A stretch of DNA of 64,000 nucleotides from Amphiscolops sp. MND2022. Lineage: Eukaryota. Shown in pieces: positions 1,950-33,457 of this stretch (position 1 is its first letter; the number at the start of each line of letters is the position of its first letter). The stretch is taken from NCBI GenBank assembly GCA_964187785.1, contig OZ076409.1:44022001-44086000 (forward strand). The letters are read 5' to 3'. The notes below the pieces were generated by a model, which did not search any database, was not told the DNA's origin, and worked only from the letters and a program-made list of their open reading frames with translations. The position numbers were made by a program, and so were the translations under genes.

Positions 1950-3974
1950 CTGAAACAAAACTAGATGTTTTTTCATTCATGTTTTTGACTTTTTTATCTA
2001 ATATATCTTTTCTATGTTTTATGTACTTTGGAAATTCTCGGACAACTCTCAAACTGGTCTATATATTTTGACAGACGACGTTTGAGTCGGAAAAATTCAC
2101 TTCCCCAAAGATGATTTATGACCTTAGCAAACGCTACATTTTAAACAGAGACCGATTAATACACCACAAATTTATGAGAAACAGACAACCTAGCACGATT
2201 TTATTACTGATTGATATAATTTTAGTCGATTTTCATCTAGAACCACGAACTAACAATTTTCGATTTTTAATCTCTAGTCCATGTGGTACAGCGTCAGTCA
2301 TGCATGCTGAGAAAAGTTTTGGTAGAGTTTGTAAATTGCAAAGTCAAAAACTGCTTATTGAACAATCGAAGTGAGACAAAATTTTAATTCTGTGGCCTCA
2401 ACTTGTTTCGCGGAAGCTCGCATGACTATCCTTCCATTAATGTGAGCATGTTTCCCTAGATTCTGAAAAACCAATGCACAACGTCAACTGTTGGATTCCA
2501 CACAAGATATTTTATCTGCACGTTTTTTCAATGTTTTTAGAAATGATACAGCCATAAAACAACCAAAACATCACAGACTCTACAGGAAAAAAATACAAGG
2601 ACGCATTAAAGCTACAATAAAAACCAACTGGTGTTCATTAGGAACTTACAAAATGGAGATTGATGGTAAATGCAGCAATGTACCCATCTTCTTACACGCC
2701 AATGGAAAGACGACCATGCTGGTGAAAAAAATCTGTTGCTACACATTGTCGCATTTCATGTTCATTTTCCTTTGTTAAACACAGACTGAAAATGTTAAGC
2801 GGGACAACGAATACACAACTGATTTTAACGCGAACATCAACACAGCGACAACTAAAGTCATACTTGCATTCTGAAAAGCAAAGTAGGGATATCTTTTATC
2901 AACTGAAATACGTCCTGTTTTCATCCGTATTAATAGAAGTTTGGCAAAAAATGTATATATTTTCATCGACAAAATCAAAGACTCTCTGCTCTCGAAACGC
3001 CTGAAACTAAAAGCCCATAAAACAGGTCAAAATGTTTTGAGCATGCAGTCTAAATTAATGCGGTCTATTACATGTTGTCGACGACTGGTAGGCCAAATAC
3101 CATTGATTGGCCTAACACCATTGATTAAGAATGTATCTGTTGAAAAAATTGTCGTGGAGTACTAGCAGCTTCTAGTATCTTTACATAAAATGCCTTCCGT
3201 AAGAATGTGTCATGTCATTTCCTGCTCTAGGAATGAGCCCCCTCAACGTATGGGCTCATTCATATATCTGCAACTGCAAAATACCGTGAAAATGAATATT
3301 ATCTACAAAAATAGACTTCATCTATCATTTCCACGGAATTTTTTTGATTAAATCATTCATAAAAACTTCCAGAAGCAAGTTTTAAAACTCCAAACTGATT
3401 TCATGATTTTAAAGAAACTGATAGCTGAAGTTTTGTATTTAAAAACAAGGCGAACTTGCTTCTACGTTTTACGTTAGCTAAAAAATCAAATAACAGCAGA
3501 TTTAGATTTTTTAGCTTCAACTTTTACGTAAAACGCAAATTACCTCGGTTATAACGTCAAAAATTCGGATGATGAAAAACCCGCATTCGCAAATTTTATA
3601 GAAAACCCGCCGATTTTTGGTGTTAACAGATGAGACTGGAGTGAAGTTTACCATTGATTGAGTTCTCCATTCGAGTTTTCTACCCAAAAAACTGTTCTTC
3701 GCAAAAAAAAACGTCAAAGAGGTGTCGACTGACAGGACTTCGCTGATGTTTTGCAGCACAAACCGTGAAAAATGAATACCTTGAACAGTACCAGTTATAG
3801 ATATAGTCTTGCGTTTTCATGGATTGGTTTCCCAACAAGTTAATGCGCCCATGCACACGGTAGACATTCAGTTTTCCCCGAGGAAATGGGCATTGACTGG
3901 CTGTCTTACAGTACAGATTAGAAAGCCACAAAAGGCGTATGGGCTGTTGTCAAGAAAAGACTGGCAAAACAGTT

Positions 3975-4309
3975 ACTTATATCTTCACTTTTAAGATGAG
4001 TATTTATGGCTGGCGGCTGGATGCAGGAATGGAGAGCAGTCAAGTCTTCGGAACATGGATCACAATCCTCAGATTAGTTCTCTCTTTTCTTATTGAAAAC
4101 ACAACCATGCAATTCTCTAGTTTTTGTCAGCACTGATGTTTTTTACTTCATAAATATTATTATAGTTATTTGTTCAAAGATAGATGCTGATTAAATAGTT
4201 AAAAGGTTAAAGTTCTGTCATAGGTAAAATAGTTTTAAGGTCAAATATTTAAGAGTTCTTTCAATCAGTTCTTTTGTCCTCAACATAGGAATGTTTCAGC
4301 TATGTTACA
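3975..4309 (-). repeat. 3' LTR (335 bp)
   Basis: No differences found by eye versus 17895-18229. Minus-strand termini TGTAAC...ATAAGT. Confidence 0.95.
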
Positions 4310-4321
4310 CTTCCTCTCATC
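4310..4321 (-). promoter_or_regulatory. Polypurine tract
   Basis: GATGAGAGGAAG immediately 5' of the 3' LTR on the minus strand. Confidence 0.8.
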
Positions 4322-4647
4322 GAGAAACTTCCGGCATCTGGAAAAAAGCCATCATACAGTCGGAGGAGTAGTGTAGTGGAGATTAGAAGCTGAAATTGCC
4401 AAGTTGAGTAGTCCACTTCCAATAATTCCATTGAAAGAGCCCAAGAGAAAAGTTTTGGAGAGCAGCACAAGTCCCAGTTTCATGTAGTTGTGATGAAGTT
4501 GTATATTTGATCCAGTCCAGTTGAATATTGTCGAGCCAAAGATTACTGCATTTATAATTTACATATACTGCAGAAGAAAATATATTAAAGGATTTGTTTT
4601 GATAAAGTTCGATGATGAATGAATAATTAAACTGAAGGATCGTGAAG

Positions 4648-6993
4648 TCAGGCAGTGATATCGACATGAACTGCCTCAATATCGCTTTGATCATGAACCA
4701 TTTGAGCAGGCCTAACTTGGGAGTTGCTATGTGGGACTATTAATGATGAGTGAAGGTTGTTGGCTGATTGGCAATCTTTGGATTGGGTCGTTGCTTGTTC
4801 AAACATTGAACTTGACATTATAGAGACTTTTGGTTTTGAACGTGAAAGATGATATATTGTTCCAAATTTTTTTTGAAATTTATCCTCAGCATGAGAGTCA
4901 GTTGTTTCCAATTTCATCACAGGTTTAGCGCGAACTCTTTTTTTGTTTTTATCAAGTAAAGATGGAAACAGTTTTGATGCCAAATTGTATCGATGATAAA
5001 TATACATAAAGATCAAGTGCAAAGCTGTCGATACAATGAACACAGTTAATGTCAGCATGAATGAAATTCGGAACGGAACGTATTGATTAAATTCTTTCGT
5101 TAAGGCTGGTTTCAAGAGTTTCATTTCTGATGCATATGGTCTGGCAATGTCGATCATGTGTTTGACTTCACGATTCTTTGGTCCTTTTGCTAACTGTAGC
5201 TTTACCTCTTTCAACAATTTCACTCCTGCTTCAGCTTTCGATGTGTAGAACGGTAATTCATCCAAAGGGGGGACTTCCATAACCAATGAAGCTATAGGAT
5301 TAGGCAGAGAAACTTGCAATTTTATTGATGGAATGTGAGCGCAACTTGATAAATCAGATCGGATTTTGATGTTGTCAGTCATAATTTGCATTCCACATGC
5401 TAAAGTGATGAGACATATGCGGCATCCGCGAAAAGAAGAGCCCTGAACAGATGAAGATGAAACTTCACGAAGGGTAACGGCGTGAGCGGATTGAATTAGC
5501 CAAATGCCATAGCCTAAGTTTGTTGCTTGTTCGATGGCAGGCAGTTGTACAATTGTAGTATCACATACTGCAAGAGCCTCTTAAGCTGTACTAGAATATA
5601 AAGTAGCGAGGCAAGATGAATGACCCATCTCTGTTGGAACAGATTCTGAACAGATTCGGTAACGAGATGAGCCAAGACAATGCTCAAACTGTTCAGCAGA
5701 GAGGACAGATGACTCCATGTGATCCTCCGACAAAGCTAAATATGGGGCTTCGATGTTCCATGTAAGAGCCGACTGAGGATCGTCTGGATACGGCATCGGA
5801 ATTAATTTGGCTTCATATACAGTAAAAACCGTCTGCTTAGATGCTAGCGGGATGTTTAGGGTCATCAAAAGACCTGCTTTAACCGTAATAGCATCTGCTA
5901 AGAGCTTGGAATCGAAGTAAGATAGCAAATCTGACATTGGAATAGCTAAAGACAGCCTATCCTCAGCCGTCGTCTGTGTCATAGCAACACTTCTAAGAAT
6001 AACCAGCAATGATTCTGTCGGTACTAAGGACATAGGTAAATGACCTCTAAGTATGACAGGAATCGAGTTTAGGATGTTCATACGGAATGCAAATAGCGCT
6101 GCGCGATAGCTCTTTACACTTGCATGTATCATTGCTAAGAGAGAAGAAAGGGTGTCGAAATTAAAGTTCAGTTGCTGGTTCGAAAATAGAAGCTGATTGC
6201 AGTCGCGAAGCACATGGAAATTGTGTTCGAAGATGTCAAATTGTTGTTGAATAATATTCCAGTTCGTATCCTGCGTTGCAACAAGTTCCCTTTGGATGTC
6301 GTGAAGGGCCGCCAATTCGTTTTCAACCATAAAAAATTTTTTGTCCGTAGATGTTGTAAATTCAGTTACATACTGGGTTAAAACGTCCTGGAAGTCAGAT
6401 AGTTTGCGAATGTTCTCGGCATTTGCCTTCGCATCGTCTTGGCAGGAACCAAAAATGCCTTGTAGTCCACAAGAGTCGGAACTACCAAGAGCCACTCCTC
6501 CTCCAAAAAGGCCGACTGCGGCAAGAGCCGCTAGTCCCACTTGGGATCCACGTCGGTGGCGAGTATTCCGCGGCTGTTGAGGAGGGGAAAGAAACATTGC
6601 TGTTTCATTGCGTAGGAGGGCAACATCGAGTTCCGCGGTGTGGATTTCATTTTCTATTTGATGTAACATCCAGGTGACATTGAACGGCGTGGAATTCGTT
6701 GAAAAGTGACTTGAAAAATCCAAGGGACAAAAAACAGATGGAAGTTCCCACATCGACGCGAGTTTGGCCATTAAGGCCACAATATCTGGTTTAAGTGCGA
6801 AGTCATAAGTCGGAAAGGGAACTAAAAATTCGACTTTTATAAATTTCTCCGCAAGCAAGATTTTGCTGCGTTCATGGAACAGAACACCCTTTTCTTGAAT
6901 TTCGTTGGGGTTATTGGAAGCTTCTAAATTAGAAAGCCACTCACTTTGAACTGAAGCAGGGGTGAAGAAAACCAGTAAGAACAAAACTAACAT
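4648..6993 (-). CDS. env: Envelope glycoprotein, class I fusion (F-like), ~781 codons, one in-frame TAA at 5581-5583
   Basis: Signal peptide MLVLFLLVFFTPASVQS; furin site RHRR (6561-6550) followed by fusion peptide GSQVGLAALAAVGLFGGGVALG; heptad region; Cys-rich region; TM ISFMLTLTVFIVSTALHLIFMYIY; cytoplasmic tail. ORFs 5581-6993 and 4648-5391 share a frame with 63 open codons between them. Confidence 0.88.
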
Positions 6994-7378
6994 TGATCCG
7001 TTTTGTTTTTTGTTTTTGTGTTTCCCCCTTTTTTTGATATTGAATAAAAGCGAAGAATTCTCGAATGAATACTATATCAACTATTTCGATCGATTTCAAA
7101 TGCAAGAATGGCACTTTGGGTATTTTTGGGGGCGGGGTTTGGGGATTTTTGAAAGATCACAAGAAATGTGATGCCATTTGTTTTCAGTATCCGGTGCCCG
7201 TTTGATATTTACAAAATTCGAGATGTTAAAGTTTGTTTTGCCAAGTCATGTTTACTGCACTGGTTGTTTGACCTGTGATTGAAAAGTCAGATTTTCGAAT
7301 TCGGACGATTGAAAGTGATCATGAAATGAACGGAATGTTTATTCAGTTGTCAAGCGTTTATCCGAGTTTTTTAGTAAA

Positions 7379-7792
7379 ATGAAAATTCTGAATGTGCTGG
7401 CGGCAATCTGCGTTTTTGCTATAATGGAAGCATGCATGCAAAAGGAGTGGAGAGGGCACAGAATAACGTGTTGTGCTAATGGAACGTCAATGGAAACACA
7501 TACAGGGCAAAAGATTTGGGTCGCGCAGAGGCCTGCTATCTGTGATGTAACAAGTGCCAATGAAAAGTCCGCCAAGTCCAAGAGCTCAAAAATTCTCAAA
7601 GGCTTGATCATCCTTGGCACGTTGATGCTCTGTGCAGGCTGTTGCTTAAAAAAATTTCCTTACCGAAAAGTGTGGCAAATGCTATCAAAATGTTGTGCTT
7701 CGAAAATCGATGGTACAGAACAAGAAGGCATCGAAATCAAAGTAATCAAAAAGGAAGCAAGTCCAAAACTGGCACGCAGTCAGTCTTTTTAG
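7379..7792 (+). CDS. Antisense accessory ORF, 137-aa predicted type I membrane protein
   Basis: ATG start, signal-like MKILNVLAAICVFAIMEAC, Cys-containing ectodomain with NGT sequon, hydrophobic ILKGLIILGTLMLCAGCCL followed by basic KKFPYRK. Confidence 0.65.
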   Translation: MKILNVLAAICVFAIMEACMQKEWRGHRITCCANGTSMETHTGQKIWVAQRPAICDVTSANEKSAKSKSSKILKGLIILGTLMLCAGCCLKKFPYRKVWQMLSKCCASKIDGTEQEGIEIKVIKKEASPKLARSQSF

Positions 7793-8153
7793 ACTAAATC
7801 AGAAAACGAGTTTTGTTGTATTTACGTCGTCGTAAAAGTACTGAAAGTTTCGTTACATGTACTCGCGTAATGATACAGTTAACCGTTTGTTACTTTTGTT
7901 ATGTTTGTTTTAAGGCACGAGTTTTAAATTAAAACTTGCAAATTCGATGCCCCTCTTTTTTTTTATTTTTTTTTGAAGTGCAGCAAAACATAAGCCAAAA
8001 TTATTTGAAGCAAGCAAATTAGTAGAGAGGAAAAGCTATTGAAAGAAAACGGACAATATTCGAAAATTTAAACTGACAAGAGAACCGTTGAAATTAGTCA
8101 AGGTAGAAACAAATGGAAGATAACTGAAGGTTATACATGATAGGCGGAAATGT

Positions 8154-8438
8154 TCAGACAGTTTGATAAGCATTAAGCAGAGTCTTCTTCAGCTGGCGAA
8201 ATTTGATGAGTGTCCTCAAACCGCCGAATTTCGGGACAGGGAAATCCTGTCTTTGAAATAGAAGGACAATTTCAATCCATTTAGGGGAACCGTAGTCCAG
8301 CTGCTGCAGCGTTCCATCTGATAAGATTAACGAAATACTCATGAGCTCGTCAACTTTGATACGGATGATTGGGTAGTCTGCGCCATTATGCATACACGTC
8401 CATGTGTAGTGAAACGTAAACTCCATGTCGTTAAGCAT
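8154..8438 (-). CDS. Small element-sense accessory ORF, ~94 aa, unknown function
   Basis: ATG at 8438 (MLNDMEFTFHYTW...), globular-looking composition, divergent from the + strand gene starting at 8673. Confidence 0.4.
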   Translation of the reverse strand: MLNDMEFTFHYTWTCMHNGADYPIIRIKVDELMSISLILSDGTLQQLDYGSPKWIEIVLLFQRQDFPVPKFGGLRTLIKFRQLKKTLLNAYQTV

Positions 8439-8672
8439 GGTGAGGGCAAAAGAGATTACTTGAAGGTAGTATGAATGCTTTAAGACAACTGAGAACAAGG
8501 GTGGCAATAGCAAATAATGAATGGAAGAAAATGTCAATCTAAACGTTCGAATAAGAATCATCAGTCGAAATGTCACGCAAAGAGATCATGTTTTGTTTGT
8601 TGCGCACTGGTGACCTTTTGTAATTTGCAAAGCAAACAAACAAACAAAGTAAATTGGATTTCAGAGAGCAAG

Positions 8673-9964
8673 ATGGAACAAACTATGTTTGATGCGATTA
8701 TAAAAATGAAGGCAACTGGTGAAATAAATGCGTTAGTCTGTCAAACAAGGAAACAGAAATTTTTGTGGAAAACTCGGCTCAGTTTCTTCACTCTCAGCAG
8801 TACGGGTGAGTTACTATGGAATGGTCTAAAAGTCCCAACAACAGAGGAGCTAACACTAGTGTTATGGCCTTTTCATGAGACTGAGAAGAAACACGTATTA
8901 GACGAAAAGGTACTACGTAAAGTCTTATCAGACAAAGGATACGCCCTACCTACATTCATTGGGGGCCTTGAACGAGCGGTGAAAGTGTAAGTAATAATTA
9001 ATATGAAAGTCATCAAAATTTAGCATAGATTCACATGGTATTCCATGACTTCAGATTTCTTCACGATTGTCCGGAATGCTTTTGGACAAGGCATGAGGGA
9101 TACCGATGGGAAAGGGCGGCTAGTGTATCAATAATGGAGCGACAAGATGCCTGTAAAAGGTTTGCCCTGACGTGGGAAAAGTTGCAAGATGGGCCAGAAG
9201 GTGGAGGGTTAGTCGGTTTAGGTGAACCTCCTGTCGCATCCTGCAAATCTGTTTTTGCGCAGGGTGGAGGAAAATGCTGGGCATCGAGTATATTTTTCCT
9301 ACTGACTGGGAAAAAAAGCGGTTAGGTCGAAAAACAAGATTTAAAATAAGAAAATTGCTGTGAAAGCCAGGTGACTTTTTTGTTGCAGATAAGAAAAAGG
9401 ATGGTGCGGCACTGAAACGCATCAGAGATACGATCGGAAATCATATGAAAACAGATGAATTTAAGAAGTCATGCGTGGAATGTTTGGATTATGCTCCCAA
9501 TGAATTCGAGCTTGATGCTATGCTGCGATCGAATTTGGACATTAGTGAACCTTGGGTAAAAAACTTTTTGAGAATTTTGAAGAATGTCAAATGATTTATG
9601 GAGAACATATGATTCATGATGTTCTAGATGTTAGGAACTGCACAAGTGTTAGGCTGGGACATCTTGGTGTTCTGGCGTTACACTGTCAAAAAAGGTTGGA
9701 TTCGGTACCCGGCAAAAGCAAGAGGCCCATCATCAAGAGTTGCTTTCCTATTCCATGTGATCCATTCGGAAAAGGAGAAAAAATTCCACTGCGAGCCGTT
9801 GATAGATTGGCCCATTGAAAAGTAAGTATTGACACAAAAGAAACAGGTAAAGTAAGAAAAAGAAGATAATTTCGAAATATGTATGTAGCAACGATCCAAC
9901 GTATAGAGGGAGGGAGGCAGGCGAAGGGCCATCCGCGAAGAATGCGAGAAAGTACTGGAACTGA
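8673..9964 (+). CDS. Antisense spliced accessory gene: HHCC zinc-binding motif plus OTU-like cysteine protease, 338 aa; exons 8673-8986, 9055-9320, 9389-9555, 9628-9821, 9889-9964
   Basis: Four GT-AG introns of 68, 68, 72 and 67 nt, all phase-compatible, give a 1017-nt ORF. Motifs: H-x5-H-x35-CPEC; GGGKCWASSIFFLLTG; LKRIRDTIGNHM; GTAQVLGWDILVF; FHCEPL. Confidence 0.8.
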
Positions 9965-10428
9965 TCATTGCATCGACTGATTATCATAGTCAATATCATC
10001 AAAACTAGTCATCTCAGAAAATTTAAGAGTGTTTGTGTTTCAAATGTGAAGGAAACTAGGAGAAAAGCAAGTAGGAAGCGTGCGAGCGTAGCAGGATCGA
10101 TTGCGGCAATAGGGAGGCCACGCAATTCGGCGAAACTTGGAGAAATCCCTTCAATGAGTGACGGCGGCGAAGGTGTCAAATAGGACGCGGAAAAAATATT
10201 TTTTATCTCCGATTCTACAAAGGAGGGTACCAAACGAAAGAACAGCACATTCTAAGACCTACCACCGAAAATGTAGGTTCAATGCGATAATTTAACAGCG
10301 AAAAATGCCCTTGCAAGAGGTCGATTTTCGAGTTTTGTGTGATCTTGTTGCATTGGATTGTAAAGAATAGCCTGGATCAGCGTGAAGTGGGCTGGAAGGC
10401 ACTGCACAAACTCAAAGCAGTACTGCTA

Positions 10429-13400
10429 TTAACGAGAAGGCTGAACAATTGTGATTGTAATCTGAGACTTTGAAAAAATACGATATAAAATCGAAAAAAC
10501 AGTTGGCCAATGTAAGCGGTCACGACCACTTCCAAGTCTTGGAATGCTGAGCTTTCGAATATTAGAGCGCTCTAGATGCTGACGCAAGGCCATCAAGCTC
10601 AATTCAAGCGATTCATACGTAGATTTATGAAAGAATCTTGTTTTTGTGACTAAGTTATAGATGTAACGTTGATTAAATCGGTCGAAATAAGAGACAAGTG
10701 ATCCCTGCGGTAAACGTTTTTGAGCCTGAGAACGTAGTTGACGAAGCTCCGGGTTACGATATGCGATTGCAGAGGCAAGGCCTCGCTTCATATGAAAATC
10801 TGCTGAAACACAGTGAGCAATAGATTCAGGAGATTCTAAAATATTCGAAGAGAAACAAAAGTTTGGATGAATGTCTGAAGAAATAGAATTTAAAACATTG
10901 GATGAGGACAGTCTTTTCTTCAAATTACGGAAATTATAGCGTGCTTTTACTTCCTTTTGATGCTGTAGATACTCCTGAGGAGATTGCGGTGTCAGCTGTT
11001 GCGCTGTAGTTGGGTGGACCCGTGGACTTGCATCAGAAGGAGGTCGAGTTCGTTGACAAGATTCAAGTAAGATCGTGCGCTTATCTGCTTTTGGTAAGCT
11101 TGTCCCTGGGACCTGAGTCAACTGTGTTCTATGTGGAGGTTGTCCGTAAGTTTTTGGTCCACGTCCAATAAATACTGGAACTGTTTGACGGTTCTCATCA
11201 AAACTTAGTTGTCTATCAGTTCTACGTAAAAGAGTAGTCGGAGTTTTCGGACTGACTGTGGGTAGGTCTTGCTCTGGCGAGGCAGTTATGAAGGCACCAG
11301 CGGATTGTGCAGAATCTTCATTAGAAGAGTCATCTGAAGAAGCCCGAGAATCCGTGGGCTCAGCTGCAAGTTGCGCTGGTGGTGCCGTATCCTCGTCCTG
11401 GGCTGGCAGAGCGGGAAGCGCTGGAGCCGCTGCTACAGCTGGTAGGGGTGGAACTGCCGGCCCTGGAGCTGGTCCTACCGGAATAACAGCTGGTGCGATA
11501 GGAAAACTAAGAGAAACTGTGACCGGTGGAGGCTGTTCTTCGTTTTGAACTACACAAGGCGCCTCTGAGGGAGGCAACAAAAGTGTTGGAATGCTTTCAT
11601 CAAAAATAGCTGGTTCGCCTCTGAAGCGTCCAAGCATAGGATCGCGTTGAAATTTATCCGGGTCAATTTGCTGTAAGTCCTCAACTTGATATTGCGGTAC
11701 GACGGGTCTAAGACGAATGCGATGTACGCATTGAGTGTAGTTTGTACCGACCTTACGAATTATGTAATTAGAATTCGTTAAGACTTGTTCGACTCGATAC
11801 AATGGTAACCAAATAGGAAGGAACTTACTCGAAAAATCAGACTGCGTCATTAGTTTTGGATTCAAAAGAAGACAAAAGGAAAACTGTTTCAGAGGTTGCG
11901 CTTCTGCTTTGTAATCATAATATGCGCGGTATCTATTATACATTTCAGTCAATTTACTTTTCGCTTCGGAAAATTTTTGTAACATGGCGTCCTGCAATGC
12001 AAGCACATATTCTGTAGTAGGTTGCTCACGTTCAAGCGAAGTTTTATTAAACCTGAGATCCAATGGTTTCAAGGGTTCACGACCATGAAACAATGCGGTC
12101 GGACTTGTCCCTATTGCAAAATGGTAAGAAGTATTGTGAATAAATGCAGCAAGTCGCACGTATTTGTACCAGTCATTCCACTGCTCTGTGGTGTTCAACT
12201 TCAAAATTCGTTTGAGGGCGCTATGCGAGCGCTCCACACTACCTACAGTTTGAGGGTGTTTTAGACTGGCATGTTCCAATTTTATTTCCAAAAGTTTAGT
12301 CAATTCGTGCATCAATTCACTCACAAAAGTAGTACCCAAGTCGGATAAAATTGTTTTTGGAAGATAACTATGACGGAAAAATATCGACGCAAGTTCTCGT
12401 GCAACCGTTTCCGATCGCCCATTAATAAGTGGGACTGCGAAAAGATATTTTGTAAATACATCAATACCCGTAAGGACATAACGGTAGAGCGGGGACTGTA
12501 ACGGACCGACAAGGTCAATTTGTAACATTTCGCCCGGGTAAGATTTCAATGAGGAGACCGGTTGCAACGGAGTTTTCAGATTTTTGCTTGGTACACGTTT
12601 CAGTTGCAAGCATTGTAGACAGTTTTGGATAGTTGACGTTAAGTATTCTGTAAAATTCCGAAAATAAAAGCGTTTTCTAAATTCTTCAACCGTTTTATTG
12701 ATACCCATATGGCCTGCTGTAGGCGAGTTATGCAAGCGGTAAATTACTTCGCGCCAAAGGGATTTAGGAACACAGTACTGTTTGTGTTGAACTTTGCCTT
12801 GATCGTCATAAAAAAGTCGATAAAGAACATTTTCCTCAATGATTAGGCGCGGAAACTGTTTACGATATTTTCGCAAAGCTATCGGTAAATTTGGCGACAT
12901 GTCCGGCGAACCTCGGTCTTTCCATTGCATTACTTCACGAATGATCTCGTCTTGATTTTGTACTAATGCGAGGTCTATTGGCTCCGACCGATTAGGCAAA
13001 TCATCAAGAATGTCACTAAATTCGCCTGACGAGACTAGGTTTATTTGATTCACTTGACAAAATGAGTAAAATCCGGTTATTTCGAGAGACGGTTCCGTCT
13101 GCGCTTCAGTTGTTTTCTGTAAAAATTGTTCATACAGACCGAATTCTTTCAACTGAGAAATTAAGCGTTCATCAGCCTTGTCGTCTATGGCTTCTGGAAA
13201 AGTTTGTCTACTTGAAATATTAGATAAAGCGACATCCGGCGCTTTCGCTTCTTTTTCTATTTCAATCTCTTTAATAGGTATCCGATCAGTCAATTTAAGA
13301 GAAAGAGTTAAAGAAGGGTCGGTTTGCATTCGTGATAAAAAATCTGCTGCCGAATTTGCTTTACCAGGAATATGAGCAAGGAGAATGTTAAAAGACAAAA

Positions 13401-15924
13401 CTCTATCCAAACAGTTCCATAGCGATGGGTGAATACTTTTAGATTGGAAAAATTGCGTGAGACTACGGTTATCGGTTAAAACTAGCACAGGTTTAGTGGC
13501 GCCCCATATAAAATGTGCAAAATGATCTAAGGCGAAATAGAGAGCAAGAAATTCTTTATAGTAAACCGAAAATTTCAATTGCGTCGGACCAAACAATCGA
13601 GATCCAAAGGAGACCGGCGCGTATACTTTTTTTTCTTTTCCTTGTTGATCTAACAAGTAGTCCTCAATCATGAGAACAAAACCTGTACCATGATAACTAG
13701 CGTCACAAAGAAGAACGTATTGGAGGCCAGGTTTGGCCAATCGCAAAGTAGAATTGGTAGCATTTCGTAAATCTGTTTTCAATACATCTAATGCTTCGCT
13801 ATGTTCTTTCGTGGTTTTAAATTCTACATCTTTTCGCAAAAGTTTATAAAATGGTAGCAATTTTTGACCCAAGTTGGGCATGAATGAACGGAAAAATTGG
13901 ACAAATCCGATCAATCTCTTCACTTGTTTAACTGTTTCTGGCATTCTGATTTTTTCGAGGAATTTGTTTATTTTGTCTGCTTCAGGTGAGATTCCTTTAG
14001 GAGTTATAGTGCTTCCCAAATAATCAATTTTTGTTGTCCCAAATTCGCATTTGTGAGCAGACAATTTTAATCCCGATGCTCGCAGGCAATCAAATATTTT
14101 CTATAAAGCAGGAATCATTTCATCAAAGGTGTTTACTCCCATGGCAATGTCGTCCATGAATTGAGTACAAACATTGGCAGCAAGACATTTATCTAGATAA
14201 TGTTTGACGAACGAACTAAATCCAGTGACGGATTTGTTCAGGCCTTGGGCTAAACAATTATAAGCAAATGTGCGCGAAGCGAAATTAAATGCCAACAATT
14301 GTACCGAAAGGTCATCCGCCATTTGAACGCAATGGTATGCTTGCGAACAATCAAGTTTACAAAATAGTTTCTTCCCCGCAAAGTGGTTTGTCGCATCGGT
14401 CATGTTTGAAATTGGGAAATTGCTATTTAAGTAATCATGGCGTAGGAGGTGATTGACTCTTCTGAGATCAATAAGTATGCGAAGCTTGCCAGATGGTTTG
14501 CGATGTACAAATATCGGACTAGAATATTTGGAATGTGACAGCGTAGTTATGATGTTAAAATATTGTAATAACGCCAATTCAACTAAGATTTCGTCACGCA
14601 AATGAATCGGTGCTGGTGGACCTTGAACGTATACCGGAAGTTGATGAGCAGGCGTTAATTTGATCTTCAATTCGGTATTATACCCAACATCGAAGCGATG
14701 TTTTGCAAACACGTCATGATATTCAACAAGAAAATCCTCCAATTTTGACTTTTCATCAGCGCTCAAAACACATGTATCCCACGCAAATTTTTTCAAAAAT
14801 TCTTGTCTATCGTGTAAATTAGTTTTTGGGTTTAGTTTTTCACAACGACGAAGTTGCAGAATTTGATCGTAAATTTCACGTTGAAGCGGTGACAAATTTG
14901 AAAGATCCGTACATGTTTCGGGAGTCGGAAACCAAAGTTTTGAGTAATCTGGTGGCGGCCGACCATTGTCAGTGTCGAATTTTTGAAAATGTATATCGTG
15001 AATTAGCTGATTGAGTTCGTTTTCAAAATCGTCAGGGTTTCTCATTTTTGCTAGGGCCAATAATTGTGGATCTATTTCAAGGAGATAATCGGCCTGTGAC
15101 TCGCGCAAAATTTCAAAACGTGCAATTTGTTTTTTGCTATTTAGCGTAATCTGGGAATCAGACAAATTGATCGCTGATATGTATATTTTATTGTCATTAT
15201 CCATCTTGCTCAGAGACGAAGTTAATGCAATATTGGCTGTTTCCTCCAGATTCTTGTTTGGAATTACTAATCCTGTGCAATTAGCAAACTGGTCAGTATA
15301 TTCATCCAAATAGCATTCAAGGAGGACTTGTTGTTGCGGTCCAATATTTACTTTTTTGCTCAGTAGGATAGGAATATTTTTCATTTTTTTTACAAATTGT
15401 CGTTTTTTCCCAGCGTCCGGTTTCATTTCATTGAGTTGAACTGTAAAATCAGGCAGTTTCAGTAAGTTGTTTTTTGGGTCGATCGTAATATTTTGTTTTT
15501 TAAAGAAAGAGTTGCCCAAAATTACACTATTCATTTTTGGTAGCACAAGAAAACTGTCGGTAAAGGAATGAATTCCAATACAGAATGTGAGATTCACCTG
15601 ATTGTCAACTGACACTCGTTGTCCTGAAGCCATGCGGACAGACGTAAAATTTGGAGTTTCATTTTTAATTAATTCAGGATGATTCGCTCGTAATTCATCG
15701 TATAAATTTTGTGGCAATGCATTAGCACAGGCGCCAGTATCAATTAGGGCTCTCCGGCGAATGTGCGGAGAAAATTTTAATTTAACGTAAGAAAGATTTT
15801 CACCTTCAAGAGGCAAAACAGCGCATATATCTGGCTCATTTAATTCTATGTTACGTGTGTGGGGCTCATAAGACTGGTTTTCATGTAGAGAAGTAGGCGG
15901 TGGAATCTTGTGCTGCTTTTTTAG
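10429..15924 (-). CDS. pol: Pol polyprotein (PR, dUTPase-like spacer, RT, RNase H, integrase, Pro/Ala linker, macrodomain); one in-frame TAG at 14101-14103
   Basis: ALIDTGA (protease), FMDD (RT), LLCDAS / TDNRSL (RNase H), H..H..CLQC plus IDLVG, SDLGT, VER (integrase). The two listed ORFs share a frame and are separated by one stop and 12 open codons. Confidence 0.95.
10432..10860 (-). other. TARG1/OARD1 (Poa1p-like) macrodomain at the Pol C-terminus
   Basis: SIAHCVSADFHMKRGLA...RYIYNLVTK..FFHKSTYESLELSL...LSIPRLGSGRDRLHW..V..I...F....ITI, collinear with TARG1 SLAHCISED.RMGAGIA...RYIYYLITK...HKPTYENL..SL...LSMPRIGCGLDRLQW. Confidence 0.88.
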
Positions 15925-17189
15925 TTTTTTTGATTTTGATTGAACGGCATTTGAGCTCCTCGTTGTGGAGGGTTACCTTGCGCGGTACAATCTTTTGCTA
16001 GATGATTCGGATATCCGCAATTATAACAAGTATGTGTTGATTGTTGCGTATAAGGCATGTAATGCGGATCCGGAGTAAAAACTTCAAATGTAGTTTGCGA
16101 TGAACCTTGATTAGAATTTCCTTGTTGAAAGTTGTCCTGATTCGGATTTGACCATTGTTGCTGGCTATTTGGATTCTGATTAAAATTCGAGTTTTGGTAA
16201 TTTTGATTCGACTGATTGTAATTTCTGCCGTAATTGTTCTGCCAAGGTCGTCCACGCCCTTGGTAACCTCGACCTCGGTTTCCACGGTTATTGCCGCGAT
16301 ACCGACCACGGTAGTTTCCTCGATTTCCGCGATAGCCTTGGCCACGATAGTTTTGAGAGCCGCGTTGCGAATTGTTTTGGTTTTGCTGGTTTTGTAACTG
16401 AGTGGTAAAATTCGTAGCTTGCGCTTCTAGTTTTTTGGACATTTCGTTCAGTCTATTGTCCATAGTTTCTTGACTATGGCTCAATTTTGTGAGAGCTGTA
16501 ACTAAAGTATCAGATACTGAAGGGCGCACTTCACTGAAAGCATCCATAACCGAATCTTCAACCTTACAAAGGTTATAGATCGAAAGTTGTTTCCGAGCGA
16601 ATATACACAAATCTTCAACCGTTGTATTTTCCGGTTGTTCCAAAAGTTTCGCTCGAAGCCAGCCCGGCATATTTTTTATAAATTGTCTCCGAATCTGAGC
16701 GGAGCGCGCTTGTTGCGCTGAATGAATTATTTCGGCTCTTCGGGCGGTTTCAGAATCAAATCGTGTTTGTTCCACTGCTGCGTCCGGTGCGGCACCATCA
16801 ATTGGTGCTACAGCAGGTGGATTTGGATCGGGATAAGCTTTAAGTGCTTTCGTTTGTAACGTGACTAAAAAATTCTCTGGATTGTCTGTTTTCGGATCGA
16901 ATTTCAAGTTTTCCAATTTAAGCATATGCAATTCCTGAAGTCTCGGATTACAAAAATGGTCACGAAGAGCTGTCAAAGAGAGATCTAAGTCCGCACGTGT
17001 CGCTACCGGTAGTGTTTGAAAATAGCGGAGCGCAGCGTCTCGAAGATGAAGTTGTAAAAAGTTGGCTTGCTGCGCTTGCGGTACCGCAGCTACTGCTAAG
17101 ATACTTCGCAACAAATGTTCAAATTCACGAAAATTTTCCTTTTCTAAACCCGAGTAGGGTGTTAGCGAGAGTTGAGGTAAAGCAGCCAT
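15921..17189 (-). CDS. gag: Gag, 422 aa
   Basis: ATG at 17189 (MAALPQLS); capsid-like helical region, R/G/N/Q-rich tract, zinc knuckle CYNCGYPNHLAKDC. Confidence 0.92.
   Translation of the reverse strand: MAALPQLSLTPYSGLEKENFREFEHLLRSILAVAAVPQAQQANFLQLHLRDAALRYFQTLPVATRADLDLSLTALRDHFCNPRLQELHMLKLENLKFDPKTDNPENFLVTLQTKALKAYPDPNPPAVAPIDGAAPDAAVEQTRFDSETARRAEIIHSAQQARSAQIRRQFIKNMPGWLRAKLLEQPENTTVEDLCIFARKQLSIYNLCKVEDSVMDAFSEVRPSVSDTLVTALTKLSHSQETMDNRLNEMSKKLEAQATNFTTQLQNQQNQNNSQRGSQNYRGQGYRGNRGNYRGRYRGNNRGNRGRGYQGRGRPWQNNYGRNYNQSNQNYQNSNFNQNPNSQQQWSNPNQDNFQQGNSNQGSSQTTFEVFTPDPHYMPYTQQSTHTCYNCGYPNHLAKDCTAQGNPPQRGAQMPFNQNQKN
15924..15930 (-). promoter_or_regulatory. -1 ribosomal frameshift slippery heptamer A AAA AAC
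   Basis: Directly before the gag TAA; the -1 frame is open from here into the protease. Confidence 0.8.
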
Positions 17190-17882
17190 GATTTTAAAAG
17201 TTAAGTGTGAAATAGAGAGTGACGAATAAAACAAACTAAGATTGTAGTGAAGAAAAAATTGAAAAATTGTCTAGCAAAGTGTGTAAAATGCAGTCGAACA
17301 CTGACGTGTAGTTTGAACTTCGAAAACTGAACAACGAATATAAAACTTTCAAGGCGAAACAAGAAAGGTTTGAGATCAAATTTATAGTGTTTTTGCAACA
17401 ATAACGATTTGCAGTGAAAAGAGAAAATTTGCAATTGGAAAAAAGTAAAAAGATTGCAGAAATTCACAGTTGAGTTTCGAAAAGAGTAATAGCTGTGAGA
17501 CACAGTTCAGTTGAAAATGAAAACAATTGAAGCACTCATGAAATTCGAAAACTACACTATATCACTTTACTGCTTCAGAAGTGAATCAGACTCACCGACT
17601 GTATTCGTACTGGCATTTTGAAGTCATCATGAAATTGAATACAAATATCGGAGCATCAACATTCGCCCAATTGGAGAAAGTCACCAAAATTCATCATTGA
17701 TTTCTGTAGTTTCCAGTTTCTGCCGTGCCGTGTTTGTTTCAGTTGTTACAGCCTCATGGATCGGGTGCTGGTCGTGGATGATGTGGCTGGAACACCGCGG
17801 GTGGTTGGTCGGGGGTCTCGTGTGAGCGTTTCAACACAAAAAGGAGAGTTCTTCTCTGTATTGCATAGTGAGGATTGTTTTG

Positions 17883-17894
17883 CTCCTGTCACCA
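17883..17894 (-). promoter_or_regulatory. Primer-binding site TGGTGACAGGAG (possibly tRNA-Leu type)
   Basis: TGG start immediately after the 5' LTR; the same 12-mer follows the 5' LTR of the second Gypsy (53338-53349). Confidence 0.8.
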
Positions 17895-18229
17895 ACTTAT
17901 ATCTTCACTTTTAAGATGAGTATTTATGGCTGGCGGCTGGATGCAGGAATGGAGAGCAGTCAAGTCTTCGGAACATGGATCACAATCCTCAGATTAGTTC
18001 TCTCTTTTCTTATTGAAAACACAACCATGCAATTCTCTAGTTTTTGTCAGCACTGATGTTTTTTACTTCATAAATATTATTATAGTTATTTGTTCAAAGA
18101 TAGATGCTGATTAAATAGTTAAAAGGTTAAAGTTCTGTCATAGGTAAAATAGTTTTAAGGTCAAATATTTAAGAGTTCTTTCAATCAGTTCTTTTGTCCT
18201 CAACATAGGAATGTTTCAGCTATGTTACA
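17895..18229 (-). repeat. 5' LTR (335 bp)
   Basis: Direct repeat of 3975-4309, followed by the PBS. Confidence 0.95.
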
Positions 18230-18582
18230 CAGTTTCTTGAGAAAATAGGAAAAAAGTTCAATAAATGTAGAATTTCGCCGAATTTGAGGTGGTCCAAAAC
18301 GGTTTAGTATTATTTCACCCCACGTTCATTTCACCCCAAATTCATTTCACCCCACGTTCATTTCACCTCACACTTAAATTATCAAATGCCTCTCAGATAA
18401 ATGACTATTGCCACCCAATTTCAATCTAATAGAAAAGCGTCTTGGTTCTGATTACCAAATAGACACAGAGGCGAAGCGGTGCTTCGCAACACATGACGAA
18501 GACATCGATTATTTTAATATGCGTATATATATTATTTTAATCGCATGCGTATATATTCAACAGTTCAACTTTGTTCAATAAC

Positions 18583-18972: not shown

Positions 18973-19806
18973 AACAAGACGAGAACGTCTAAAGTCGGCG
19001 CCATATCTAAGGCTCAAAAAGCGCAAAAGACTTTTTTTGAAAAAAAAACTTGAAAATTTTTTTTCGAAATTTTATCGAATTTTTTTTCGAAAAACCAAAA
19101 AAATGGACTGAGTGGCGCTCCGGGGCCCGCTAGCGCGAGCCCCTGGCGCGCTAAAAGAGGGACACTTCCGAAATTGTCAACATTTTTGTTGCAGTTGAAG
19201 GAGGAACCCTTTGGAGAAAAAACAAATTTTCGAAAAAAAGTCTCACAATGCCGAAAAACTGAAAGGGGGGACCCTTTGGAGAGAAAATAATTTTCGGAAA
19301 AAGTCTCACAGTGCCGAAAAAAACTGAAAGGAGGGACCTTTTGGGGTTTTTCACCATCCATTCAGTCGCAAAACATCAAAAAATTGAAGGGATGAAAATT
19401 TTTTATTTTCGAAAAAAAATCTCACAGTGCCGAAAAAAACTGAAAGGGGGGACCCTTTGGAATTTTCCAACATCCATTTTGTCGCAAAACAGCAAAAAAT
19501 TGAAGGGGGACCCTTTGGAGACAAAAAATTTCGAAAAAAAAGTCGCACAGTGCCGAAAAAAACTCAAAGGGGGGACCCTATAGTCTCGTCAGGTTTTGTA
19601 TCTTACGATAAAAATGGAGTAACTGAAAGGGGGGACCCTTTGCACTATCTTAAATACGCTCCCCGTTTACCGATCCAGTACTTTAGTTTAGTAGTTCTGT
19701 TCTGTAAAAAGTGTCCACTACGCATATATTCTGTTATCTGACGAAAAAAAAAACTAGCCACTGTAATAGTCGGGCTCATTTTCTTCTAAAATGCGCCGAC
19801 TAAAAA
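18973..19806 (-). mobile_element. Helentron-associated (HINE/DINE-1-like) non-autonomous element
   Basis: Subterminal inverted repeats AGTCGGCGC / GCGCCGACT, minus-strand end ...TCTTGTT, internal tandem GGGACCCTTTGG blocks; related copies at ~20380-20500, 20987-21210 and 56103-57155. Confidence 0.6.
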
Positions 19807-31700: not shown

Positions 31701-32688
31701 CCGAAAAAGTCCCATTCGCATTTTTTACTTTGCGTTGTGTTTCTTCGCTGAAGTCGAAGAACAGGGAACGGTCAAAAAACATATGCGAGGAAGCCCCAGA
31801 GTCGATGACCAAAGTGTGCTCCTTCACCTCGCATTTTTGGCTAGTGAGTGCAGTCTCACTACCATCGCAAAAGAAAACTAAGTCCTCAGCTAGGTTTGAC
31901 TCTCCTGTCTCAGCACTTGACTTAGGGTTCAAAAGAAGGTTTTTCTTGAAACATTTATTCTCTTCATGGCCAAAACGCCTGCAAAAGTTACACTGGGATA
32001 CTCTACAAGTGGCTTGTTTATGTCCACTTTTACCGCAACGCCTACACTTTCCATTGAACTTTTCAGGTTTACGCGCGGAATTTTTCGCAACAGTTCCTTT
32101 GGATAACAAGGCAACATTTTCATTGCTAGCTGTCGCAGTTTGTAGGTTAAGAGAACTTTCGAATTTTTTAAATGCTTTCTTTACTTCCGCAAAAGACGCC
32201 TTATCTTTCGAAAAATCGTGCACAGTTTTGAAATAGTCATATTCGGAAGGCAAACCCTTAAGAACTATCGAAGTTAACATGTTTTCAGAAACTTTCTCAC
32301 CAGCGAGCTCCAACTGCTTACTCACATACTCCGCTCGAGTCAGGTAGTCAACCATGCTCTCCGTCGGCTCCAAGCGCAGGGTTGTGAACTTCTCCAATAG
32401 GTTCATCAACTTCGGTGTTTCGGTGCTGTTGAAGTGGTCGCGCAGTAGTTGCCATGCCTTCGGACCACCACCCTTGCAGTCGTTCGTCAGCATCAGGATT
32501 CTGCGGTTGTCAAGACACTGTACCAAGTACGCCCAAATTTCGTACTTCTTGTCATTCCTGCCAGCATCTGTTCCACTCAGCACGTTCAGCAGTTTCTTCG
32601 TGAAACAGAACACCTCGAATCGCTCCTGCCACACAGCGAAGTCTTGTTCCTTGCCAGAGAACTGGAGATACTGCAAAGGTCGATCCAT
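28780..32688 (-). pseudogene. Copia gag-pol, multiple frameshifts and stops
   Basis: CRRCGKSGHKQATC knuckle, VIDSGASSH protease, LWHLRLGH, RSDNGKEY / PHQNGVSER integrase, LVWVDD RT, FSDSDWA RNase H. Confidence 0.92.
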
Positions 32689-33457
32689 CCCTCACAAACT
32701 CCAACAAAAGCCCGAAACAGGCAGAAAGAAGTAACTGAAACAAAAATGAGGGCAGCAAAACAGGGATTCCCACGAAGATAAGCTACAAAGTTAGCGAAAG
32801 CGAAGCGGCGGTAACGGACGGCATAAATAGCAAAAATTGTGGATATCCGAGACGCAAAAAGGAAAAATGGAGAGCGAAAAATAAGATCAGACGAGCATAA
32901 TCAAAGTAAGCAGAAAAGGTTTTTTTAAGGAAAAAGGCAAACTCACCAATTTGCTGGGTCCATAACCTATTAGGGCCTGGGCTCCTTCTGGTCGTAGCTG
33001 GGTTGTCGGAAGATTGGTGAAGAGTGGTTATTGTCAATACTTTATTTTGTGTTGTGAGTTGATAAAGTGATTCAGTCAAGTGAAGATAAAATAGCAGGTA
33101 CATGTTTACAAACAACAAGAATATACTAAATTAGTTCAGTCTGGTATAGTCTGAGATGGTTGACCTTTAATGGTCCTTTGACCTCCATCGATCTCTAACA
33201 AAAAGTATAAAACGTGTCTCGGATATGTCTCCATTGCTTCTAGTGTCCCGCGGCCCCTTGGTGCCGCTTATGTTCCCATCTTGCTAAGCGAGGTCAAGCA
33301 GTAGCGGGAACGGAGATCGCGAAGCAATCGTAGTGGGAGCTGGTCTTTGCGACGGTGAAGGCAAGCGTGCATACACAGCATATGCCCCACATTGTGATAG
33401 TCAATCGACTTGAGGCAAACAAAGAACGTTTTCGACCAGAAGGCTTCGATCAAATTC

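Follow-up and report, generated by a model that had tools for sequence, protein, structure and literature searches.

The LTR retroelements of invertebrates are commonly interpreted as gag-pol or gag-pol-env, and it is complex vertebrate retroviruses and RNA viruses that typically carry accessory genes directed at the post-translational signalling of the host. The window analysed here (the whole stretch of 64,000 nucleotides) holds a minus-strand, env-carrying Ty3/gypsy element of 14,255 bp (3975-18229), in which a block of ~3.4 kb between pol and env (7072-10428) carries genes on both strands. The locus raises the question whether these genes are parts of the element or a later insertion, and what they might do for it.

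Anatomy and age of the element

The element is bounded by two LTRs of 335 nt on the minus strand, the 3' LTR at 3975-4309 and the 5' LTR at 17895-18229, which are 100% identical, and the target-site duplication CAGTT lies at 3970-3974 on the left and at 18230-18234 on the right. A polypurine tract read from the sequence (4310-4318, minus strand) adjoins the 3' LTR, and a primer binding site, TGGTGACAGGAG, complementary to a tRNA-Leu-like 3' end, is found at 17883-17894 on the minus strand. Two LTRs, target-site duplication, primer binding site and polypurine tract, as found in Ty3/gypsy elements (Metaviridae), are therefore all present, in agreement with the single TSD-flanked provirus of the original prediction. 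All 12 bases of the primer binding site are complementary to a tRNA-Leu(CAA)-like gene at its 3' end with CCA added, and the site is identical in 10/10 element copies. ARAGORN called no tRNA at this gene, which we read as a probable tRNA-Leu(CAA) interrupted by an intron-like insert.

Within each of the 10 copies the two LTRs share 99.4-100% identity, 7 of the pairs being at 100%, and the family comprises 134 first-look LTR candidates, 271 candidates for exon 2 of the antisense gene described below and 1211 env candidates. The window copy thus inserted very recently and belongs to an abundant, retrovirus-like family of mobile elements. In every one of the 10 copies examined, at least one of gag, pol and env is interrupted; the window copy carries two nonsense codons, a TAG in the reverse transcriptase (14103-14101) and a TAA in env (5583-5581), which had to be added to an earlier reading whose anatomy is supported. 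An alternative genetic code was considered for these codons and rejected, since each occurs just once, pol is uninterrupted in 2/9 siblings and env in 5/9, and TAA, TAG and TGA all serve as gene ends here. The poly(A) signal AWTAAA was not enriched (141 found against 181 expected), so sites near 7928 and 7962 were given no weight.

The gag-pol backbone and a macrodomain at the end of pol

The gag gene (15921-17189, minus strand, ATG at 17189) encodes a CCHC knuckle (Pfam E 2.5e-5). Just upstream of its stop lies AAAAAAC, which we take to be a slippery site, and pol follows in the -1 frame. The pol ORF (15972-10432, minus strand, stop at 10431-10429) runs from protease to macrodomain in the order protease, reverse transcriptase, RNase H, integrase, with the Gypsy-type Pfam families RVT_1, RT_RNaseH, RT_RNaseH_2, Integrase_H2C2 and rve in sequence. 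Reverse transcriptase (RVT_1, 14005-14502, broken by the TAG in the window copy), RNase H (13414-13812) and integrase with H2C2 finger and rve core (12265-12771) were all matched by Pfam on the minus strand, as had been expected for gag and pol; the aspartic protease (15496-15756, minus strand) fell below the cut-off (E 7.6e-4). Between protease and reverse transcriptase, a stretch on the same strand (15118-15363) shows a weak dUTPase-like signal (21.1 bits in Pfam, where 22 are required; E 0.05-0.07 to PDB dUTPase). A Pro/Ser-rich linker (10840-11799, minus strand; dN/dS 0.03-0.70, median about 0.34) leads from the integrase to the C-terminal domain.

This last domain (10447-10830, minus strand) matched human OARD1 (PDB 4j5q) in phmmer at E 1.8e-21 over residues 21-143 of 146, about 125 residues being aligned, and the pol-borne macrodomain that had been proposed is thereby supported. 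Pfam Macro reached E 0.006 on the pol C-terminus, at only 17 bits against a 22-bit cut-off. In the alignment to 4j5q, LVTK stands opposite LITK and GRDRL opposite GLDRL, so that Lys and Asp fall on the TARG1 catalytic pair. There is thus strong evidence for a TARG1/OARD1-type macrodomain, with predicted ADP-ribosyl hydrolase activity. Human TARG1/OARD1 (4j5q, 2eee), with which it shares the aligned length and both residues, stands alone, whereas the macrodomain of the window ends a pol of 1,847 codons (one TAG read through), behind a 320-residue linker.

The domain is free of stops in 9/9 siblings (dN/dS 0.00-0.27) and is convergent with the antisense OTU gene in 12/20 diverged loci. Five pol-macro fusion proteins were found among 5.8 billion clusters, with 51-100% identity to the macro region of the window, the 100% row being the window's own pol. 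In a diverged OTU-bearing lineage, the pol C-terminus gave no Pfam or PDB match to a macrodomain, and the domain is therefore not essential to the clade.

The envelope protein

The env gene (4648-6993, minus strand; TAA as given above) encodes an RHRR furin-type cleavage site (6561-6550) followed by a hydrophobic stretch, and a C-terminal membrane anchor (5061-4993). Sequence searches with env found no match. A structure model was built from an uninterrupted sibling env (pLDDT 69.4); its top Foldseek matches in PDB were the F proteins of Hendra, Nipah and PIV5 at E 3.5e-7, with a low TM of 0.19-0.31, and in BFVD it matched baculovirus F at E 1e-17. The F-like envelope of the original prediction is borne out by this search, and the model supports assignment of env to the paramyxovirus/baculovirus F-fold class I fusion proteins. 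Values of dN/dS were 0.05-0.12 in 16 of 18 cells, the other two being an outlier of 0.39 and one undefined.

Genes of the accessory block

On the plus strand, antisense to the element, lies a predicted gene of four exons: exon 1 with the start codon and two conserved His (8673-8986), exon 2 with CxxC and the OTU Cys box GGGKC (9055-9320), exon 3 (9389-9555) and exon 4 with the His box FHCEP and the stop TAA (9628-9825). Its three GT..AG introns of 68, 68 and 72 nt leave an uninterrupted spliced frame of 314 aa. The four-exon layout is kept across loci, splice models being found for 17/21, and the exons are more conserved than the introns. Exon 2 gave 150 scored matches at 31-100% identity, 18 of which, by our count, contain a stop. 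The OTU Cys is invariant in 17/17 rows and the His in 16/17, with a Glu two residues past the His; in the exon-2 alignment the Cys is present in at least 90% of 25 rows and, by inspection, missing in a single locus (L050). Against the nearest diverged subtype dN/dS is 0.00-0.16, and against other subtypes dS is saturated, with dN of 0.12-0.50.

Assignment of this protein was possible at the profile level. The exon-2 profile matched a Pfam-validated triple-OTU protein at E 1e-5 among 1.84 billion proteins, and the spliced alignment, when compared by hhalign with Pfam-validated OTUs, reached probabilities of 94.8% and then 96.6% (E 6.9e-10, 143 columns). Single exons and read-through fragments had no match in Pfam, including OTU PF02338 and the integrase HHCC zinc-binding finger PF17921, and with E allowed up to 10 the four exons, ORFx and the membrane protein gave only a chance-level hit to DUF6619 (E 0.095). 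A genome-wide PF02338 search had no match on the element, none of the longer proteins in the 5.8 billion clusters scored against exon 2, the exon-2 profile had 0 matches to PDB sequences, and phmmer of the spliced protein against OTU ORFs of its own genome likewise gave 0. We therefore regard the antisense gene as encoding a predicted OTU-like cysteine protease, a call supported at the profile level only. The spliced opposite-strand gene expected at this place is thus supported, and the OTU half of its HHCC-OTU label holds at that level; the integrase-type HHCC half lacks statistical support. Its four residues are invariant in 17/17 rows and in register with the N-terminal domain of the element's own integrase, yet hhalign between the two was not significant (E 0.053, probability 1%). 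In the gene, an intron interrupts the part that codes for the HHCC domain.

Also on the plus strand, a type-I membrane protein of 137 aa is encoded at 7379-7792 (17 distinct ORFs aligned), where a small opposite-strand membrane protein had indeed been described. It has a signal peptide, conserved Cys, an NGT site and a Cys-rich membrane anchor; dN/dS is 0.18-0.21 where dS is measurable, Pfam gave no match, and its Atlas matches stand at 0.80 or below. A third gene, overlooked in the original prediction, lies on the sense (minus) strand: ORFx (8154-8438, ~94 aa), which across 9 distinct ORFs is 35-99% identical with a conserved stop (dN/dS 0.28-0.36) and is missing from some subtypes. Foldseek with its model (pLDDT 89.3) found nothing at E 0.001 or better, the Atlas search gave no usable match, and the only resemblance, to PH-like folds at Z 4-6.1, may reflect a common arrangement. 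The spacer between the starts of env and the membrane protein (7072-7384), with 85-96% DNA identity across subtypes, is a possible shared promoter or leader. The clade therefore has a complex-retrovirus-like genome with four accessory parts, namely the integrase-fused macrodomain, the antisense HHCC-OTU, the antisense glycoprotein and, in many subtypes, ORFx.

Origin and role of the accessory genes

The block occupies the same position in 9/9 fetched siblings, with the same gene order, and an OTU gene is found between pol and env also in two elements with an RH-IN identity of only 46-47%. It was thus kept in the sibling copies, where its absence had been named as a sign of secondary insertion, and in far more diverged lineages, and its genes show purifying selection (dN/dS 0.0-0.36), the measure that had been suggested for testing its conservation. 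The accessory genes belong to the element and are maintained in it by selection; the block is no secondary insertion. The opposite reading, in which 7072-10428 is a passenger without a role in the element, either a nested Ginger1-like transposon or a captured host gene, is largely refuted and in our judgement highly improbable. It could draw on the low identity of the block, only about 65%, among siblings that share 93-99% identity in pol, and on the likeness of an integrase-like motif plus OTU to the Ginger1 transposase. Ginger1 DNA transposons (Bao, Kapitonov and Jurka 2010, PMC2836005) do share the combination of a Gypsy-integrase-type zinc-finger motif and OTU in a mobile element, some with introns, but they are cut-and-paste elements with terminal inverted repeats (TIRs), in which one transposase chain holds both DDE core and OTU. 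Here only about 60 residues separate CxxC from the Cys box, with no DDE core between, and the gene lies antisense within an LTR element having a full integrase; it was ruled out as a Ginger1 transposase on the lack of DDE core and TIRs. Around the block, only imperfect inverted pairs of 14-19 nt, of chance size, were found, and a nested DNA transposon was dropped on this ground. Retention in lineages with 46% pol identity, dN/dS well below 1 and the youth of all 10 copies likewise speak against a passenger.

The RH-IN of the window is nearest to the copies C3_53.51M and C7_26.72M (path 0.003-0.004), while the closest OTUs are those of C4_84.39M and C2_77.53M. The grouping found with either data set is rejected by the other (p-AU 4.8e-32 and 6.7e-5), for clade groupings picked after the distances were seen. 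Given this strong conflict between accessory and pol trees, the module recombines between lineages.

As to function, we infer a counter-defence or replication-protecting eraser role for the module, and lean, by a modest degree, towards a complex-retrovirus-like clade whose accessory enzymes are erasers shielding replication intermediates from host restriction. The macrodomain would ride with integrase in the particle and the pre-integration complex and might strip host-PARP ADP-ribose from acidic residues or linear cDNA ends. The OTU protein would be expressed from the integrated provirus by an antisense promoter of its own; its introns, we propose, are not lost in retrotransposition, since the genomic RNA contains them in antisense orientation only. 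It could take ubiquitin or a ubiquitin-like tag off element or host proteins, possibly docking to integrase through its HHCC domain, and jointly the two would protect replication intermediates from ADP-ribosylation- and ubiquitin-dependent restriction. A bolder form of this proposal, put forward tentatively and with some doubt, is an active invertebrate endogenous-retrovirus clade with a two-strand, intron-bearing anti-defence island (macrodomain, OTU, PH-like ORFx and glycoprotein), whose gene lineages, far older than the pol backbones, were diversified and reshuffled by recombination, as a signature of an arms race against host ADP-ribosylation/ubiquitin immunity.

The same genes, real and selected, could instead serve integration and repair, the macrodomain resetting PARP1-dependent ADP-ribosylation at the integration gap and the OTU regulating integrase turnover or repair signalling. 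Fusion of the macrodomain to integrase fits such a role, as do the OTUs in Helitron-size ORFs of the same genome and the proposal that OTU/Ulp1 of Ginger1 act in transposition and DNA repair (PMC2836005). However, the accessory genes diverge far more between lineages than pol (OTU protein paths of about 1.05-1.1, with RH-IN DNA paths no longer than about 0.1), and module shuffling suits a host-interaction module better than fixed housekeeping; this is not decisive, and we hold the housekeeping role to be rather unlikely. Regulation of the element itself, by limiting copy number or by transcripts feeding dsRNA or small-RNA pathways with the proteins secondary, appears improbable. Plant LTR elements do have antisense ORFs and promoters of unknown function, which have been suggested to act in regulation or through dsRNA (PMC7264820), but protein-level purifying selection, conserved Cys/His and an exon phase conserved down to about 30% identity argue that here the proteins themselves matter.

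Comparison with known systems

Among RNA viruses, such activities are paired in coronavirus nsp3 (Mac1 with PLpro), and nairovirus L carries an OTU; the macrodomains in question are of MacroD-like or viral type, the proteases papain-like or viral OTU domains, and all sit inside replicase polyproteins. The element would bring the same two kinds of eraser activity, predicted from sequence, to a replicating genetic parasite, but its macrodomain is TARG1-type and sits on integrase, and its OTU is a separate antisense gene.

Closer to the backbone are the env-carrying Ty3/gypsy 'ancient errantiviruses' already described across metazoans (Chary and Hayashi, eLife 2026, PMC13524379). They share the order LTR-gag-pol-env, a paramyxovirus/baculovirus F-related envelope, multi-copy young insertions and tRNA-Leu among their primers, whereas the window element adds the 3.4-kb two-strand pol-env module and the pol-terminal macrodomain; the terms macro, OTU, antisense, accessory and deubiquitin have 0 occurrences in the main text of that paper. 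In plants, Grande, RIRE2 and Retand also carry an antisense ORF, which is conserved, lies downstream of pol and before the 3' LTR, and has an internal promoter where studied (PMC7264820). According to the main text of that review, in which the word 'intron' is absent, these ORFs do not clearly resemble any known protein, whereas the window gene belongs to an animal element, has three introns and a recognisable enzyme domain, and lies upstream of env. LTR elements of bdelloid rotifers (Rodriguez, Kenefick and Arkhipova 2017, PMC5408684) share modular capture of enzymes and of a paramyxovirus-type env, with modules shared between lineages. The enzymes captured by the Gypsy-like ones differ (GDSL esterase, DEDDy exonuclease, dUTPase); in that article macro and OTU have 0 occurrences, and antisense occurs once, on small RNAs. 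No report of a macrodomain plus antisense OTU accessory set was found in the literature searched. The novelty raised in the original prediction is thus narrowed: the backbone is a known one (PMC13524379), and the accessory genes did not turn up in the literature searched, the main text describing that backbone included.

Significance

The locus represents a multi-copy, recently mobile family with two recognisable predicted eraser enzymes and two small proteins, whose accessory genes lie on both strands, contain introns, evolve under selection and pass from lineage to lineage. If the enzymes are active, ADP-ribosylation and ubiquitin would become candidate pathways of retroelement restriction in invertebrates, the element would offer a natural system for testing an integrase-borne macrodomain at the pre-integration complex, the TE-borne OTU domains of Ginger1 and Helitron would be tied to a retroviral setting, and annotation pipelines restricted to sense ORFs would miss antisense genes of this kind. 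Should the reading as an anti-defence island be true, no earlier example of a complex-retrovirus-style accessory gene set would exist outside Retroviridae.

The accessory block as part of the element

The block between pol and env (7072-10428) is part of the element. Many element copies are present in the host genome of 1.07 Gb, and the LTR search gave 134 first-look candidates, of which 40 were scored, with pairs forming elements of 11.9-17.8 kb. Ten places were fetched and one of them, a rearranged or nested locus at C7 53.87 Mb (L015/L016), was excluded, leaving nine siblings. A block of like size is found at the same position in all nine; it matches the window block at 99% identity in one sibling only and is ~65% identical in most, as against 93-99% for gag, pol and env. 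No inverted terminal repeats were found around the block. On tblastx comparison of such pairs, the plus strand showed four conserved segments with a common stop as well as a small membrane protein, and the minus strand showed ORFx, also with a common stop, which had been overlooked in the original prediction.

Element ends, core genes and state of the copies

The element lies on the minus strand (3975-18229) and is bounded by LTRs of 335 nt each (3975-4309 and 17895-18229), which are 100% identical by direct-repeat scan and alignment of both ends, with CAGTT on either side. A purine run adjoins the 3' LTR, and the primer site TGGTGACAGGAG is located directly inside the 5' LTR. All 12 bases of this site are the complement of the 3' end, with CCA, of a tRNA-Leu(CAA)-like gene that the host genome carries; since ARAGORN called no tRNA gene at this locus, the putative identity of the primer tRNA as tRNA-Leu(CAA) is our own interpretation of it. 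A search for the 5' motif of this tRNA-Leu-like gene matched 68 places in the genome, on C11 (6.00-6.08 Mb), C8 and C9, with most of them densely packed into a tandem array on C11; a control pattern gave 0.

The gag gene starts with an ATG at 17189 and includes a CCHC knuckle; AAAAAAC, which we take to be a slippery site, occurs just upstream of its stop, and pol runs on in the -1 frame. Along pol, a weak aspartic-protease match is followed by RVT_1, two RNase H families, Integrase_H2C2 and rve, which, judged by these matches, is the Ty3/gypsy order. Between protease and RT, a dUTPase-like stretch (15118-15363, minus strand) reaches 21.1 bits in Pfam against a cut-off of 22 and E 0.05-0.07 with PDB dUTPases; it is 33-35% conserved in the diverged lineage, and does not retain the usual third motif.

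In the window copy, a TAG at 14103-14101 cuts RT and a TAA at 5583-5581 cuts env. In each of the ten copies, at least one of gag, pol and env is interrupted; amongst the siblings, pol is whole in 2/9, env in 5/9 and a long gag frame is present in 6/9, and part of the frameshifts may be due to assembly errors. LTR pairs are 100% identical in seven of the ten copies and 99.4-99.7% identical in the other three. Other retroelements on the minus strand of the window include an RVT_1 fragment (25099-26094), a Copia-type element with gag_2, rve, SH3_retrovirus and RVT_2 (28878-32691) and a BEL/Pao-type element with DUF1759, protease, integrase and DUF5641 (59066-63999). Immediately beyond the element, the window has an 87-nt direct repeat whose two units are 89% identical (19298-19384 and 19414-19500).

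Envelope

An uninterrupted env from a sibling found no match in Pfam or PDB by sequence search; 94 homologues at 37-97% identity (93 from ENA assemblies, one from NCBI) were found among 5.8 billion clusters, and 34 of these, picked for length and identity spread, were aligned with it. The AlphaFold2 model (mean pLDDT 69.4, pTM 0.54) was compared by Foldseek with the PDB, where the best matches were the F proteins of Hendra, Nipah, PIV5, hMPV and RSV (E 3.5e-7 and weaker, probability 1.00, with low TM-scores of 0.19-0.31), and with BFVD, where baculovirus F/Ld130 proteins and chu-like virus glycoproteins were detected at E 1e-13 to 3e-19. Together with an RHRR site, a hydrophobic stretch behind it and a C-terminal anchor, these matches bear out the earlier description of env as F-like. 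The env-carrying backbone corresponds to the type that Chary and Hayashi describe in the available text of their paper (PMC13524379). Amongst env matches in the same genome, 11 of the 23 listed copies at 67-70% identity hold exactly one TGA in an otherwise open frame of ~801-808 aa; this codon may be read through, or it may be a stop passed down within a subfamily that is proliferating.

The antisense gene

By its sequence, the antisense gene consists of four exons on the plus strand (8673-8986, 9055-9320, 9389-9555 and 9628-9825) which join into a stop-free frame of 945 nt; its introns of 68, 68 and 72 nt have the borders GTAAGT/CAG, GTTAGG/CAG and GTAAAA/TAG. Exon 2 has 150 scored matches (271 candidates) in the genome at 31-100% identity, nearly all covering the full exon and 18 containing a stop by our own count. 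Exon order and spacing are kept in the 20 diverged loci fetched around exon-2 matches, and when a splice-aware script was run on the 21 loci having all four exons, it recovered GT..AG models free of stops in 17. After L046, which had a false first exon, was dropped, the remaining models and the window formed 17 rows, in which two His, the CxxC and the Cys of the GGG[KE]C box are invariant and the His of FHCEP is retained in 16. Exons show few gaps and are more conserved than introns, as in the locus L052 (67-76% as against 45-60% identity). A further diverged exon-2 match, 40% identical with one TAA, is located ~7 kb past the window end (G000:C1:44093279-44093482).

The single exons had no match in Pfam, and an exon-2 profile detected nothing among PDB sequences. 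Against 1.84 billion representatives the profile gave 62 matches, mostly short fragments, one of which is a 731-aa ctenophore protein (E 1e-5) with three OTU domains by Pfam (E 2.5e-15). A search of the genome with PF02338 gave 14 OTU matches, none falling in the element. Five ORFs from this search served as one OTU template for hhalign, and these with the three ctenophore repeats as a second; the spliced alignment matched the first at 94.8% (E 5.4e-8) and the second at 96.6% (E 6.9e-10, 143 columns), with GGGKC placed on GDGNC. An OTU fold is supported at profile level. Of the spliced HHCC-OTU gene originally predicted, the exon model and, at this level, the OTU part are supported; the HHCC is in register with the integrase finger of the element, but not significantly (E 0.053, probability 1%), and this domain is split by intron 1. 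Identity as a Ginger1 transposase was ruled out because the protein has no DDE core, in contrast to Ginger1 as presented in the available text of PMC2836005.

Canonical OTU domains are also found in the genome inside open frames of 2244-2747 aa (loci L024, L030 and L031), probably Helitron-type proteins, and in a family of 190-347-aa frames.

Macrodomain, membrane protein and ORFx

The C-terminal 200 residues of pol are similar to human OARD1/TARG1 chains (E 1.8e-21, residues 21-143 of 146; next family E 1.5e-7), and a Lys and an Asp align with two residues which we take to be the TARG1 catalytic pair; Pfam Macro gave 17 bits, below its cut-off. TARG1 is established to act on ADP-ribose on acidic residues and nucleic-acid ends. 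The macrodomain is in frame with the integrase behind a Pro/Ser-rich linker of ~320 residues. Compared with the nine siblings it contains no stop, with dN/dS of 0.00-0.27, the linker having 0.03-0.70 and core genes mostly 0.04-0.13. Five pol proteins among 5.8 billion clusters have a macrodomain C-terminus, 51-100% identical there, the 100% row being the window's own pol.

In the membrane protein (7379-7792, plus strand; 17 distinct ORFs aligned), a signal peptide precedes a short ectodomain that bears conserved Cys and an NGT site, and a short tail follows a Cys-rich anchor; the protein's dN/dS is 0.18-0.21 where dS is measurable, and its Atlas matches of <= 0.80 are leads only. ORFx (8154-8438, minus strand) is missing from some subtypes; nine distinct ORFs were aligned at 35-99% identity. 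Its model (pLDDT 89.3) has four strands and two helices, Foldseek found nothing at E 0.001 or better, and VIA-align gave PH-like domains with Z of 4-6.1, which by the tool's own warning may reflect a common arrangement only.

Depth and exchange of the module

Of the 20 diverged loci, 12 have a macrodomain convergent to the OTU gene, at 49-89% identity, and none was seen within 3.3 kb in the other eight. From the most diverged group, two elements were fetched whole; they have LTRs 99.2-99.5% identical and an RNase H-integrase part (RH-IN) 46-47% identical to that of the window; the OTU gene lies between pol and env, env being seen in the one where it was within reach, and no macrodomain was detected in either. 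The antisense gene was accordingly acquired first and the macrodomain afterwards.

In the close family, the OTU exons have reached saturation at synonymous sites when compared with most subtypes, while the dS of pol is 0.00-0.39. The window is closest to the copies C3_53.51M and C7_26.72M in RH-IN (path 0.003-0.004), and to C4_84.39M and C2_77.53M in OTU (0.003 and 0.087), with about 1.05-1.1 to the others. Neither data set accepts the grouping of the other: p-AU is 4.8e-32 for the pol grouping on OTU data and 6.7e-5 for the OTU grouping on RH-IN data, the groups having been named after the distances were known. Breakpoints lie near 11030 and 7384, so the exchanged module extends from the pol linker, with the macrodomain included, as far as the membrane-protein gene.

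Novelty and possible role

No report of a macrodomain or OTU gene in an LTR retroelement was found in the literature searched; an existing entry in Repbase, GyDB or the supplements of these papers is possible. A word search for macrodomain and OTU in the available text of PMC13524379 and PMC5408684 gave no such report. Antisense ORFs are known in plant LTR elements, according to the available text of PMC7264820, without recognised domains; the word 'intron' is absent from the main text of that review, whereas the antisense gene of this element has introns.

The anatomy, selection, recombination and domain homologies are established here, and on them a mechanism can be proposed. The macrodomain would travel on the integrase into the pre-integration complex and strip ADP-ribose from acidic residues or nucleic-acid ends. 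The OTU protein would be made from the provirus via an internal antisense promoter and would remove ubiquitin-type tags, and the introns of its gene may persist because they are antisense relative to the genomic RNA. The purpose of the module may be evasion of restriction or help in integration or repair; evasion is ranked first on account of the great diversity of the module and its frequent exchange. The element backbone is already known, and the element with its macrodomain and OTU gene is a real and well-supported variant of it, with a putative function for these genes.
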